A stretch of 28,763 bases of DNA from an uncultured Phycisphaeraceae bacterium (GCA_964628335.1 CAZVNU010000001.1:1-28763), one strand, 5' to 3'; positions 5,209-9,005 are shown, counted from the stretch's first letter. Made by a program: numbers and translations. The notes: generated from the sequence alone by a model not told the origin.

Positions 5209-6285
5209 TCAGTCCACCACCACGCCCAAGCGTTCCAAGATGGCGTCAAATTCATCCAAACTATGGAACACGATGGACAGGGTGCCGGCGCCTTTCTTGC
5301 GGCCGGTCTTGATTTCAACCCGGGTCTTGAGCTGGGCGGCGATTTGTTTCTCCAAATCAGCCAGGTGCGAGCCACCGGCCAGGCCTTTGGCCACCGGGCC
5401 GGCCACCGCCGGGTTGGGCTTGGCCGGCTCTTGCAGGCGCTTGACCTCGGCTTCCATGCGGCGCACCGACCAACCTTCTTGAATGGCACGGGCGCCCACC
5501 GTCTTTTGAATGGCCACATCACTCAGGCCTGCCACCGCCTTGGCATGGCCCATGGACAGCAATCCGTCTTCGACCAATTTGCGGCAATCTGCGCCTAGCA
5601 ACAGCAACCGCAACAGGTTGGACACCGTGGCGCGGTCCAGGCCCACGCGCTCCCCGACTGCCTGATGAGTCAATTTGAAGTCTTTGGCCAGGCGTTCAAA
5701 GGCCTCGGCCTTTTCAATCGGGTTCAAATCTTCGCGTTGCAGGTTCTCGACCAAAGCCCATTCGGCGGACTGTTCGTCGGTCAGCACCTTGACCACCACT
5801 GGCACCACCGTGACGCCGGCCAATTGGGCGGCGCGCCAACGGCGCTCGCCGGCCACGATCTCATAAGGCTTGGCCTGGTCGGTGGTGGGGCGCACCACCA
5901 GCGGCTGCATCACGCCATCGCGCTTGATGGAGTCAGCCAAGGTTTGCAGGGCGGCATTGGCAAAGCGCTGGCGCGGCTGATGGCCATTGGGGCGCAATTG
6001 GTTCACCGGCAACTCGGTGATCGGCAATTCTACCGCCGGCTTGACCTCTGCCACCGGGTGGGTGGTGTTGTGGGCCACATCCACCACCACGCTGGCGGGT
6101 TTGGGCACCGGCACGGCGGGCGCTTTGACGGCCGCTTTGGCCGGTGGTGTTCCCCGTGGAACATCGACCTTGGGTGCAGGCGCCACCGGCGCGGCGGCGG
6201 GAATTTTGACGGGTTGCGGCTTGGGCAAGCCAATCAAGGCCGACAAGCCCTTGCCCAAACGCGGTTGATTTTTGACAGAAGCCAT
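5209..6285 (-). CDS. parB: Chromosome partitioning protein ParB (Spo0J)
   Basis: N-terminal RLGKGLSALI ParA-interaction motif, GERRWRAA CTP-binding box, ENLQREDLNPIE and HTH; start at 6285 with AAAGGA SD upstream. Confidence 0.95.
   Translation of the reverse strand: MASVKNQPRLGKGLSALIGLPKPQPVKIPAAAPVAPAPKVDVPRGTPPAKAAVKAPAVPVPKPASVVVDVAHNTTHPVAEVKPAVELPITELPVNQLRPNGHQPRQRFANAALQTLADSIKRDGVMQPLVVRPTTDQAKPYEIVAGERRWRAAQLAGVTVVPVVVKVLTDEQSAEWALVENLQREDLNPIEKAEAFERLAKDFKLTHQAVGERVGLDRATVSNLLRLLLLGADCRKLVEDGLLSMGHAKAVAGLSDVAIQKTVGARAIQEGWSVRRMEAEVKRLQEPAKPNPAVAGPVAKGLAGGSHLADLEKQIAAQLKTRVEIKTGRKKGAGTLSIVFHSLDEFDAILERLGVVVD
6148..6163. other. parS-like centromere site 3, inside the parB coding sequence
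   Basis: TGTTCCCCGTGGAACA identical to 5186-5201; translated as DVPRGT in the ParB linker. Confidence 0.8.
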
Positions 6286-6415
6286 GCGCAGTCCTTTCGT
6301 AAAAGTGAAGGCGGAAGGATACCACAGCATGAATCACATTCAATCGTCCGGGGAGAAATTTTACGCCCTTCAAATGTTCGTCTTTTATTCGTATTTTTCT
6401 TTTTCTACTTTTTCT

Positions 6416-6500
6416 CCACTGAACACCCACTTATTTCTCCACTTCCCACAAAATCCCTAGATTTTATTGCGAAGTGGGGCGAAGTGGGGTAATATCCCAC
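6416..6500. promoter_or_regulatory. MraZ-type GTGG boxes in the parB/mraZ divergent region
   Basis: GAAGTGGGG twice at 10-bp period (6471, 6481); CCACT on the + strand at 6416, 6427 and 6439; CCAC at 6446 and 6497. Confidence 0.65.
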
Positions 6501-6526
6501 GCGTCCCCATGAACGGCGTTCCCACC

Positions 6527-7003
6527 ATGATCTTCACCGGAACCTACGAGCACACGATTGACACCAAGGGTCGCCTGGCCATCCCGGCCGGCGTCCGCGG
6601 TCAAATCCAACGCGGCGCAGGACAGGTGGAGGGGCAGTCGGTTCCCCTGTTCGTGGTGCCCGGCGACGACGGTGCCCACCTGTGTTTCTACACGCAGGAG
6701 GTGTTCGAGAAGCGGGCCGCCGAGTTGGAGAACTCCGACATGGCGCCCGAAGAGTTGCTGGCTTACGAAGAAATCTTTCACGCCTCCACCCGCCAGGTGG
6801 AACTCGACACGCAAGGACGCGTGCAGGTGCCGAAAGATTTGTTGGAGCAGGTCGGCTTGGGCAACGAGGTAGTCATCCTGGGGGTGAAGGATCACCTCAA
6901 AGTGCGCGACCGCGAAGCGTGGGCACTCAAAAGGCAGGGCTTGTTCCAAAAGAACCCCGGCATCTTGATGAACCCGCGCATGGCCAAGCTGAAGAAGGAT
7001 TGA
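6527..7003 (+). CDS. mraZ: Transcriptional regulator MraZ
   Basis: FTGTYEHTIDTKGRLAIPA and VELDTQGRVQVP: two SpoVT/AbrB-like repeats with D-x-x-G-R motifs, then VILGVKDHLKV. Confidence 0.93.
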   Translation: MIFTGTYEHTIDTKGRLAIPAGVRGQIQRGAGQVEGQSVPLFVVPGDDGAHLCFYTQEVFEKRAAELENSDMAPEELLAYEEIFHASTRQVELDTQGRVQVPKDLLEQVGLGNEVVILGVKDHLKVRDREAWALKRQGLFQKNPGILMNPRMAKLKKD

Positions 7004-7019
7004 GTTTGAAAAATCAAAT

Positions 7020-7450
7020 CGATGCGCCGCAGGATGTGGCGCCTCAAGACATGGGGACGGAGTCCCCGACGGATTCGGCAAGGATGCCGGCGGGAAAGCA
7101 GGATGCTTCACCCGGGGTCAGGATGACCAAAAAACATTCCGCACGGATGCGGAAACCACAACGCGGCCCCGTTGCGAAACGGATGCCGCGCTGATGACGG
7201 TTGGCAGAGCGGCAGGATGCCGTTCGTTGGGGCAGGGGGTTCATCGCCATCGGATCAATCTTCAGGATGAAGACCGGTGGGTGTCGGGTGCAGCCGACGA
7301 ACCCTTTGACAGCGACTCTGCCGACTTGGATTTTCCCCTTTCGGGGGGGTGGGTGCATGGAAGCACCAGCCTTTGCGGTTATCCGCAGACAGCCCACACC
7401 CTTTCCGGAATCGGTCGTGGAAAAAACCCCGCAGGACGCGGGGTTTTTCG
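7020..7450 (+). ncRNA. Putative CsrB/RsmB-like CsrA-sequestering small RNA
   Basis: At least 13 GGA motifs including five exact CAGGATG (7030, 7099, 7119, 7213, 7263); 11 can sit in short hairpin loops; ends in an intrinsic terminator; no credible ORF. The 5' end is not defined by the sequence. Confidence 0.75.
7421..7450. terminator. Bidirectional intrinsic terminator
   Basis: AAAAAA-CCCCGC-AGGAC-GCGGGG-TTTTT between the putative sRNA and the convergent GH101-like gene. Confidence 0.85.
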
Positions 7451-7472
7451 CGCAATGAAACAGGGAAGAAGA

Positions 7473-9005
7473 TCACCACTCCGGCAGCACGATGTACATC
7501 TCACGCGGGCGAATCTCGATGAACAGCGTGCCTTTGGCCACCTGCAGACGCTGCAATGCCAGTTGTTTGCCGCTGGCAGTGATGCGCACGATGTTGACGA
7601 ACTTGGTCAACTCCCAGCCCTTGGGCAATTCCCACGGCTTGGCCTCGTAACCCTTTATGCTGTAAATCAACATGGGGTGCTGGTCGTCGTTGTAGCCCTT
7701 CCACCATGGCAGAGGGATGAAGCAATCGCCTTTTTGGCCATCGTACATCTTGCCCCATTCCTGCGCCGTCGGCCGTTTGCCATGGCGCTCGCGGTACCAA
7801 TTCTCAAACAGTGCCGGCGCGGCCTTGAGCGCGAACTGGTCGCGCAAACCGTCCCAATCGCGCTCTTCCTGTTTCATCTCTTCGATCAGACGCATCTTGG
7901 TGCCGTAATACAGCGAGGGCACCACCTCGGGCTTGGTCTTGTCGTTCTTGAACGGCTTTTTGTAATGCCAGGCGAACGGCTGCAGACCGATGAAGGGGTC
8001 GATGCGTCCGATGGTGCTTTCATCGCACACCACATCGACCTGCCAATCGCGGAAATAACGGAAGGTTTTGCGCTGGGCCGCGGCCTCTTGCTCATAGGTG
8101 TAGCCCAGGAACGGGCTGATGCCCTCGAAACCCTTGGATACCGGCCCGGTGTCAAACACCGATTTGTAGGCGTCTTGCCCCGCGTTGGGATCCACCACCG
8201 GCGGCGGCACCGTGCGGAAGCCGTCGAGCATGATGGTGTGCCCGTAAAACCGGCCGTTGATCGCGCTTTGCTTGCACTCGTACAACTCGGGAATCGCCTG
8301 CATCAATGCATCAATGCGTTTCTTGGCCAGGCCGGTTTCCCATTCCTTGGCGTAACTCAGGCGGTAAAACTGCGCCCCGTCGGCCACATGGTCCTTGATC
8401 GGCTGGCCGGCCTTGTCCTTGGCCACCACATCCTTGGCCAGATACTCCGCCCACAGCGGGCTGTCTTCACTGGCATCCGACATGTTCAGTTGCAGGCTCA
8501 CCGTGGTGTTGTGCTTGCGCGCCTCGACCATCAGGCGACGCAGACCCGTGAGCGCGTCCTTGCTGGAGCCTTTGAGTTGCGGATTGACCAGGGTCCAATC
8601 CGGCGCGCGCGCGGCGGTGCCGTTGCCCTGCCAACCGACCAGATAAATGATTTTGTTGACCTCGCAGGTGATGCCGTCCAAACGCTCGATCACCTTGAGC
8701 GCCTGGTCGAAGTTCATCAACACTTCGCACTCGCCGTCTTCCAACCTTTGCGACAACTGCAACTTCATGATGATGGACTGGTCGTATTTGTGGAACCAAT
8801 CGCGCTCCGCCTGCTTGGTTTTGGTCCAGTCGTAAGGCGCCCCTGAAGGTTGATAATCCGCCGGACGCGCCTTCAATTCACTCAGTTTGATTTCCGGCTT
8901 GCGCGGCGGCAACGGCCGGCGCTTGGGCGCCACGCCGGCGGCCAGCGCCGCGCCAACGGGCGACAGCAGAAGAAAAAGGGCCAATAGGGGGGGAGCCAGG
9001 CGCAT
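7473..9005 (-). CDS. Secreted GH101-like (endo-alpha-N-acetylgalactosaminidase family) protein, possibly with degenerate active-site motifs
   Basis: Signal peptide; IIMKL...FDQALKVIERLDGIT...KIIYLVGWQ...VNPQLK...LMVEARKHNTTVSL.LNM.DA.EDSPLW resembles bacterial GH101-like proteins (recognition from memory, not a search). Confidence 0.6.
   Translation of the reverse strand: MRLAPPLLALFLLLSPVGAALAAGVAPKRRPLPPRKPEIKLSELKARPADYQPSGAPYDWTKTKQAERDWFHKYDQSIIMKLQLSQRLEDGECEVLMNFDQALKVIERLDGITCEVNKIIYLVGWQGNGTAARAPDWTLVNPQLKGSSKDALTGLRRLMVEARKHNTTVSLQLNMSDASEDSPLWAEYLAKDVVAKDKAGQPIKDHVADGAQFYRLSYAKEWETGLAKKRIDALMQAIPELYECKQSAINGRFYGHTIMLDGFRTVPPPVVDPNAGQDAYKSVFDTGPVSKGFEGISPFLGYTYEQEAAAQRKTFRYFRDWQVDVVCDESTIGRIDPFIGLQPFAWHYKKPFKNDKTKPEVVPSLYYGTKMRLIEEMKQEERDWDGLRDQFALKAAPALFENWYRERHGKRPTAQEWGKMYDGQKGDCFIPLPWWKGYNDDQHPMLIYSIKGYEAKPWELPKGWELTKFVNIVRITASGKQLALQRLQVAKGTLFIEIRPREMYIVLPEW

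Follow-up and report, generated by a model that had tools for sequence, protein, structure and literature searches.

The 28,763-nucleotide (nt) stretch of DNA analyzed here (the window; GCA_964628335.1, CAZVNU010000001.1) comes from an uncultured Phycisphaeraceae bacterium. Directly behind its mraZ gene lies a region of about 430 nt packed with short hairpins that expose GGA in their loops, which a first-pass annotation, made from the sequence alone, interpreted as an RNA sponge for the RNA-binding protein CsrA. The placement behind mraZ is borne out, as the gene is identified by Pfam and the RNA region extends from position 7004 on the same strand (Table 1). Most likely, the mraZ transcription unit ends in a structured non-coding RNA, its 3' part, encoded by the plus strand of 7004-7452. 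The source assembly (G000) comprises 2.6 Mb in 466 contigs and is 85%-complete; its nearest records are metagenome-assembled genomes (MAGs) of Phycisphaeraceae, which agrees with the initial guess of a probable planctomycete. The comparative material consisted of the other two species of the same genus, g1 (G001 and G002), a metagenome contig with a further copy of the locus (L059), 40 relatives for the analysis of CsrA (41 genomes with G000), and 144 genomes of the family for a covariance model.

Table 1. Features of the mraZ locus in the window (ORF, open reading frame; aa, amino acids).
Feature	Position	Strand	Basis
Tandem 10-nt units CGAAGTGGGG, two exact copies, GTGGG boxes at a 10-nt period	6470..6489	+	Read in the sequence, just upstream of mraZ
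mraZ, 158 aa from ATG 6527 (alternative start 6509)	6527..7003	+	Pfam MraZ, 68.9 bits, two domains
A-rich linker from the mraZ stop to the first hairpin (17-20 nt), poorly conserved	7004..7023	+	Sequence and alignment
5' array H1-H6, loops A(N)GGAY	7024..7154	+	Fold and loop counts
GGA hairpin H1	7024-7042	+	
GGA hairpin H2	7052-7068	+	
GGA hairpin H3	7075-7090	+	
GGA hairpin H4	7096-7108	+	
GGA hairpin H5	7116-7128	+	
GGA hairpin H6	7137-7154	+	
Two-step hairpin, conserved, apical loop without GGA, CGGAUG on the 3' side	7163..7191	+	RNAalifold
Shadow ORF, 550 aa, ATG, antisense to the 510-aa gene	7194..8846	+	Codon-position G+C 0.78/0.42/0.57
Central domain, closed by the long-range stem 7199-7209/7316-7326	7199..7326	+	Alignment and covariance model
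GGA hairpin H7	7207-7225	+	
GGA hairpin H8	7259-7273	+	
Variable 3' region: hairpins 7336-7349, H9 and 7375-7386, plus conserved CCUUUCCGGAA	7330..7421	+	Fold and alignment
GGA hairpin H9	7352-7367	+	
Intrinsic terminator: 11-bp stem (A-tract/GC core), loop AGGAC, U-run	7422..7452	+	Sequence
Terminator hairpin, loop AGGAC	7422-7448	+	
Convergent gene, 510 aa, weak GH101-like Pfam matches, not part of the RNA	7473..9005	-	Codon-position G+C 0.59/0.40/0.80

Ten hairpins with GGA in a loop of 3-6 nt are distributed across the RNA region. Every hairpin named in the first-pass annotation is present, displaced by at most 1 nt, as are the AGGAC loop of the terminator and the five exact copies of CAGGATG; overall, 7004-7452 contains 19 GGA versus 5 TCC. 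This imbalance, the co-orientation with mraZ, and the logic of the terminator point to the plus strand as the RNA strand. In the 5' array, the GGA centers of H1-H6 (7032, 7059, 7082, 7101, 7121, and 7145) are spaced by 19-27 nt, and extra unpaired GGA occur at 7071 and in CGGGAAAG. The array retains GGA in 23 of 24 loop cells in the four available sequences, with compensatory changes in H2, H3, H5, and H6. The pairs of the two-step hairpin that follows (columns 164-192 of the RNAalifold alignment) are kept in 4/4 sequences, two of them with a compensatory change. The central domain encloses H7, H8, the motif CAUCGGAUCAAUC, and a hairpin at 7283-7298. In the 3' region H9 is replaced or lost in relatives. 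The stem of the terminator is 100% paired in the four sequences and has two compensatory pairs. Being bidirectional, this terminator serves the convergent gene as well, whose minus-strand transcripts it would stop. The DNA similarity to G001 ends at 7449.

The accumulation of GGA loops is far beyond chance. The plus strand folds at -215 kcal/mol with a minimum free energy (MFE) z-score of -5.5, and in the MFE structure of 7020-7450 computed with RNAfold, GGA occurs in 9 of the 13 hairpin loops. The comparison with shuffled sequence, which had been suggested as a check, thus comes out in favor of the initial claim: 300 dinucleotide shuffles have on average 1.15 such loops (standard deviation 1.0, maximum 5), and none reaches nine. 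We also scanned both strands of the 2.6-Mb assembly for hairpins with a stem of at least 5 bp and a 3-5 nt loop holding GGA. Per 450 nt, the RNA locus has 9-10 such hairpins versus 6 at the runner-up, and 5 copies of CAGGATG versus 3, so it is the single genome-wide outlier for both densities. In a looser scan (stem of at least 5 bp, loops up to 8 nt), three coding regions score 9 versus 10 at the RNA locus; these near-ties are G-U-rich chance stems inside genes, and hence the stricter hairpin definition was used.

Conservation within the genus points in the same direction. BLAST finds the RNA in G001 (96%) and G002 (77%) only, and a pattern scan of metagenomes yielded just one additional copy, L059. 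In the four-way alignment of these sequences, compensatory double changes affect 16 of the 128 pairs predicted by RNAalifold. Nine of the 68 pairs forming the ten GGA hairpins covary, compared with 0-3 in slid-partner controls over the whole 79-pair set, and 37 of the 40 loop cells (ten hairpins in four sequences) still contain GGA. In L059 the nucleotide following GGA has changed from U to C in nearly every loop, yet GGA itself is kept; thus, the conserved unit is C[A(N)GGAY]G. Selection preserves stem pairing and GGA loops, whereas the stem sequences themselves drift, as had been supposed from stems that all differ around a constant loop motif. The suggested comparison with relatives likewise agrees: G001, G002, and L059 all keep the GGA loops on covarying stems. 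We consider it very probable that this is a real structured RNA maintained by selection.

The degree of conservation can be compared with that of the flanking genes. Between G000 and G001, nucleotide identity is 96.5% for the RNA, 95.4% for mraZ, and 87% for the next gene; between G000 and G002, the respective values are 78, 84, and 71%. Hence the conservation of the RNA is on a par with that of the mraZ coding sequence and exceeds that of the next gene. At the protein level, MraZ is 97%, 85-86%, and 59% identical to its counterparts in relatives. Conservation of the RNA begins at about 7024, past the variable A-rich linker, and culminates in a block of 35 nt (7269-7303) that is identical in all four genomic copies.

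The statement that the region has no credible ORF must be qualified, since its G+C content leads to long stop-free frames across it, one of which enters the shadow ORF. However, the codon-position G+C of the RNA region is flat (0.56-0.65), compared with 0.65/0.35/0.81 in mraZ, and the corresponding regions of relatives differ by 1- and 2-nt indels that would shift any frame. These two observations rule out a coding function, and the region is thus non-coding. The same statistic distinguishes the two overlapping frames downstream (Table 1): the minus-strand gene is the real frame and the plus-strand ORF is its shadow. The convergent gene is syntenic within the genus, and its protein is 88% identical in G001 and 53% in G002. 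With the shadow ORF, gene callers might annotate half of the RNA as coding.

We then ask whether the organism has a CsrA protein. Pfam searches of the source assembly, 85%-complete, for CsrA and for FliW gave no match. However, contig C446 opens with the 3' end of csrA (C446:2-46), comprising its final 14 codons (LPPAPPALPASPKA) and its stop codon, in conserved synteny with ilvB, and the DNA syntenic to the csrA region is split over contigs C446 and C408. Thus, the gene exists in the organism and is interrupted where the assembly breaks; judged by markers, this MAG would falsely appear to lack csrA. In both G001 and G002, an intact csrA of 71 aa adjoins ilvB. The protein of the genus scores 53.5 bits with Pfam CsrA and aligns to solved CsrA/RsmE structures, conserving both the Arg44 position and the MLxLTRRVGE strand. 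In the csrA leader, the Shine-Dalgarno region contains GGA, which would fit a CsrA that regulates itself but is weak evidence. Of the two genes whose presence was to be checked according to the first-pass annotation, csrA is therefore found, as a 3' end in G000 and as an intact gene in both congeners, and fliW is not found in any of the three genomes.

CsrA occurs in each of the 40 relatives searched, and most of them encode two kinds. Proteins of kind one score about 90 bits and adjoin fliW; those of kind two score about 50 bits and have no adjacent fliW. Genus g1 keeps kind two only. Neither FliW, nor a FliW-linked CsrA, nor the flagellar protein FlhA (FHIPEP) was found in G000, G001, or G002, and in 36 of the 38 other relatives searched FliW adjoins a CsrA. 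The genus thus appears to have lost the flagellum together with the CsrA-FliW module, and the usual CsrA antagonist of bacteria other than Gammaproteobacteria was not found there.

The genus also has a divergent CsrA-like ORF of 93 aa (C130:6082-6360, minus strand; L054:1333-1611). It starts with MLSLTRRIGEE, as in CsrA, and ends with RLAFDFP, as in the CsrA of the genus; between these it has an insertion of about 45 aa and lacks the Arg44 region, and its Pfam CsrA score of 18.3 bits is below the cut-off. Among the 41 genomes it was found in G000 and G001 only (74% identity). Judging by sequence, it is a putative genus-specific CsrA-derived protein.

Rather than being a gene of its own, the RNA more likely forms the 3' part of the mraZ transcript. 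mraZ is an orphan here, with rsmH not following it. No terminator was found between the mraZ stop codon and the first hairpin, the first one being at 7422-7452; transcripts of mraZ should consequently read through the linker into the RNA. No sigma-70 consensus was found across 6250-7650, and given this and the missing terminator, the RNA is most likely co-transcribed with mraZ. The A-rich linker is possibly a processing site. Upstream of mraZ, the repeated CGAAGTGGGG boxes resemble, as we assume by analogy with Escherichia coli MraZ, the operator boxes of this regulator; they probably constitute the MraZ operator and the promoter region of the mraZ-RNA transcription unit. In that case, autoregulation by MraZ would also set the level of the downstream RNA. 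About 25 nt further upstream of this pair, an inverted GTGGGAAGTG is found on the opposite strand (6440-6449).

Some support for transcription, though not proof, comes from metatranscriptomes. Three runs from soil and rhizosphere contain contigs of 150-230 nt that match 7090-7323 with 92-99% identity and are short, unstranded, and of low depth. The same runs have no contig on mraZ or the downstream gene, the look-up being biased to the invariant block. In runs X17, X19, and X20, every sampled word found in a 1-kb look-up lies inside the RNA; exact-word look-up favors the invariant block. The contigs that reach 7269-7303 have no differences listed there.

The explanation that we favor, and consider somewhat more probable than not, is that this RNA is a CsrA sponge derived from the 3' untranslated region (3'UTR) of mraZ. 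It has many GGA motifs, mostly in hairpin loops and above chance; it is non-coding, with selected structure and GGA loops; the same organism has a cognate CsrA, although the gene is not intact in the G000 assembly; and, as in RNAs of the RsmW type, it lies directly behind a same-strand ORF with no terminator between them and its own terminator at the end. The loop-plus-closing sequences CAGGAUG, CAAGGAUG, and CACGGAUG match the unit repeated in CsrB, CAGGA(U/A/C)G, as well as the core of the consensus obtained for CsrA by SELEX (systematic evolution of ligands by exponential enrichment). The proposal of a Csr-type sponge is in this sense supported computationally by the excess of GGA loops, their conservation, and the csrA of the genus, with binding of CsrA being predicted.

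The mechanism would be as follows. It is established, in line with two sources (PMC4894983, PMC13443453), that CsrA dimers bind GGA in hairpin loops and that CsrB and RsmY/Z act by multivalent sequestration. Each dimer of the 71-aa, FliW-unlinked CsrA, the single intact CsrA found in the genus, would clamp two GGA sites. At one dimer per two sites, one RNA molecule could hold approximately four to five dimers, which would be withdrawn from their mRNA targets as by CsrB and RsmY/Z. The RNA would be transcribed together with mraZ and perhaps released by cleavage in the A-rich linker, as RsmW appears to be from the 3'UTR of PA4570. Its level would then follow mraZ transcription, placing the titration of CsrA under the mraZ promoter.

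Several observations weigh against the sponge. Binding of CsrA by this RNA is a prediction, and GGA is also the Shine-Dalgarno core, so that another partner reading GGA is conceivable. In G000 csrA is not intact, its presence following from the 14-codon remnant and the congeners. The RNA-library contigs have the limits given above, and carry-over of DNA is possible. The invariant block carries no GGA and needs another explanation. Finally, a covariance model of 7196-7329 (R1) with strict filters matches in the three genomes of the genus only, among 144 genomes of the family. The hairpin counts behind mraZ across genera do not track the presence of kind-two CsrA, and by sequence comparison homology of the RNA to its counterparts in other genera is not demonstrable.

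These counterparts nevertheless occupy the same position. In genus g2 (G003), about ten hairpins with CGGA loops directly follow mraZ; the MAFFT alignment with the RNA region is unconvincing except for the common UCGGAUCAAUC and flanking stem halves. In G026 and G040 of family f3, about 400 nt with GGA-loop hairpins come after mraZ, then a strong terminator and kind-two csrA, an arrangement that constitutes genomic linkage of the RNA behind mraZ with this CsrA paralog. In 15 other genera of Phycisphaerales (loci L021-L041), mraZ is followed at a distance of 120-460 nt by a conserved structured core of about 170 nt. This core has the form GCGARGG...CAUCAGUGAUCGG...CCUUCGC with the closing stem AGCGAAGG/CCUUCGCU, and contains GAACGGAYUCGC, a CA(N)GGA-loop hairpin, and GCAUCAGUGAUCGG, with two conserved GGA sites. 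The core is also present in genomes where kind-two CsrA was not found (G007 and G038). A search of ten relatives' mraZ loci against Rfam gave nothing at E<=0.01, and the core had no Rfam match. An nhmmer search with the profile of the 15-genus core gave nothing in the RNA region (chance matches with E>1 elsewhere in the window) and nothing at E<=1 in G000. The restriction of R1 to the genus and the failure to detect the core thus indicate that the RNA in its present form is genus-specific.

The same arrangement could be read as a cis-acting 3'UTR, where CsrA or another factor would bind the GGA hairpins and control the stability, processing, or translation of the mraZ mRNA with no meaningful titration of CsrA. 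We consider this unlikely, though of all the alternatives it has the most to recommend it. The RNA is contiguous with mraZ, neither a terminator nor a consensus promoter separating them; structured RNAs stand behind mraZ in many genera of Phycisphaerales; and in the case of RsmW, RsmA alters the levels of the PA4570 transcript (PMC4950607). On the other hand, ten high-consensus sites are far above the number in known cis targets, and the RNA-library contigs fall on the RNA and not on mraZ, which is a weak argument. Besides, the cis and sponge roles are not exclusive. A still less likely explanation is that the main partner is not CsrA, the RNA being bound by another protein, such as the 93-aa CsrA-like ORF, or acting by base-pairing through 7269-7303. 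In its favor are this block, identical in four genomic copies and free of GGA, and the occurrence of the divergent ORF in genus g1 only. Moreover, 7276-7293 is perfectly complementary (18 nt) to C198:237-254 (locus L012), the similarity extending over 31 nt at 90% (BLAST E 8e-5). This site is intergenic: it follows the stop codon of a hypothetical gene, precedes a terminator, and lies upstream of an aminotransferase gene. G001 keeps the element with one change that still permits a G-U pair. However, the duplex energy is just about 3 standard deviations better than that of random windows, 1 in 400 of which is as good, and no such element was found at the corresponding position of G002. The C198 element may be a partner for pairing, a chance match, or a duplicated fragment. 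Nor does a different partner explain why GGA, rather than another loop sequence, is kept in 37 of 40 loops, and the 93-aa ORF, lacking the Arg44 region, is below the Pfam cut-off. Both ideas can be combined in a two-in-one regulator made from the mraZ transcript, whose GGA array would titrate CsrA while its GGA-free core 7269-7303 would pair with RNA from C198:237-254; this is an improbable combination.

The region might also have no dedicated function, consisting of REP-like palindromes or back-up terminators in the gap between convergent genes, where palindromic repeats often accumulate, or of a mis-called coding region, given its long stop-free frames. This explanation is very improbable and largely refuted. 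The stems all differ, the region is as conserved as mraZ with compensatory changes in its stems, and both codon-phase G+C and frameshifting indels show it to be non-coding. Dispersed repeats were rejected since the locus is a single outlier in the hairpin scan and has no further genomic copy except the one 31-nt match. An RNA on the minus strand ending at H6 (7137-7154), where T6 makes the site terminator-like, was rejected as well, since the T-run is not conserved in G002 and L059.

The sponge reading, which we retain as the preferred one, has consequences beyond this locus. RNA decoys for CsrA are textbook knowledge for Gammaproteobacteria; in other bacteria, FliW is generally assumed to fill this role, with explicit mention of Planctomycetes by Zere et al. 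(2015; PMC4682653). We know of nothing reported on the control of CsrA in Planctomycetota, and a literature search found no description of a Csr sponge RNA in this phylum. CsrA itself is very common in Planctomycetota (PMC13443453). For a genus with CsrA and no FliW found, the conserved GGA-hairpin RNA provides a concrete and cheaply testable hypothesis. If it is true, sequestration of CsrA by small RNAs either arose independently or is far older and more widespread than thought; 3'UTRs of regulators like mraZ can carry CsrA decoys; and searches for motif density behind mraZ could annotate decoys across the whole order. It would also suggest a possible function for the puzzling orphan mraZ locus of these bacteria. 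If the two-in-one regulator were real, global control by CsrA would be under the promoter of the cell-division regulator MraZ in a non-flagellated genus with no FliW found.

Comparison with known systems shows likeness in design and not in descent. At the gathering threshold, Rfam finds only one tRNA in the whole window. The best sub-threshold match is CsrB (RF00018), with 22.5 bits versus a cut-off of 71 and a local E-value of 3e-4, at 6985-7179, over H1-H6; RsmX (RF02144; clan CL00106) scores 18.5 bits versus a cut-off of 56 (E-value 0.44) at 7330-7448. With scores far below the gathering cut-offs, membership in either family is rejected, and the RNA is an analog and not a homolog of CsrB. 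The initial label of a CsrB/RsmB-like RNA thus holds for the design, an array of GGA hairpins, and fails for the descent. CsrB/RsmB and CsrC of Enterobacterales are likewise arrays of short hairpins of approximately 350-430 nt with CAGGAUG as loop plus closing sequence and an intrinsic terminator, and the proposed mechanism, multivalent sequestration of CsrA dimers, would be the same by analogy. Unlike CsrB, the RNA is not visibly a stand-alone gene with a promoter activated by UvrY/GacA (a GacS/GacA ortholog and an upstream activating sequence were not searched for), and it has an additional conserved domain free of GGA. RsmX, RsmY, and RsmZ of Pseudomonas and Legionella share the sponge design, with GGA in hairpin loops and linkers, but are much shorter (approximately 110-130 nt) and Gac-dependent.

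Two comparisons concern the bacteria closer to the genus. FliW is a protein antagonist of CsrA in Bacillus and Campylobacter and is assumed to be one in Planctomycetes (Zere et al., 2015; PMC4682653). The role proposed for the RNA is alike, antagonism to CsrA, but FliW is a protein and was not found in the three genomes of the genus; in most Phycisphaerales it adjoins one CsrA paralog, and the RNA is proposed to serve the other, FliW-unlinked one. The RNAs behind mraZ in other Phycisphaerales are similar in their position behind an orphan mraZ, in their GGA loops, and in the terminator, the RNA of the genus being about twice as long with about twice as many GGA loops.

By this comparison, the closest analog in gene organization is RsmW of Pseudomonas aeruginosa (RF02809; Miller et al., 2016; PMC4950607), an RNA that binds RsmA and carries GGA motifs on stem-loops. 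It lies directly behind the small ORF PA4570 with no terminator between them, and appears to be processed from the latter's 3'UTR and not to depend on GacA; Northern blots show bands of 400 and 120 bases, and 3 of its 7 GGA are in outer loops (PMC4950607). The position and the lack of a promoter and terminator before the RNA are the same in both cases. The two have no sequence relationship; RsmW is shorter, compared with approximately 430 nt and 19 GGA, 9-11 of them in loops, in the RNA of the genus; and here the host gene is mraZ, the phylum is Planctomycetota, and binding of CsrA is predicted. As far as computation goes, the RNA behind mraZ is thus supported as a Csr/Rsm-type sponge that is not homologous to the known ones and would extend this principle, in a new variant, to a new phylum.

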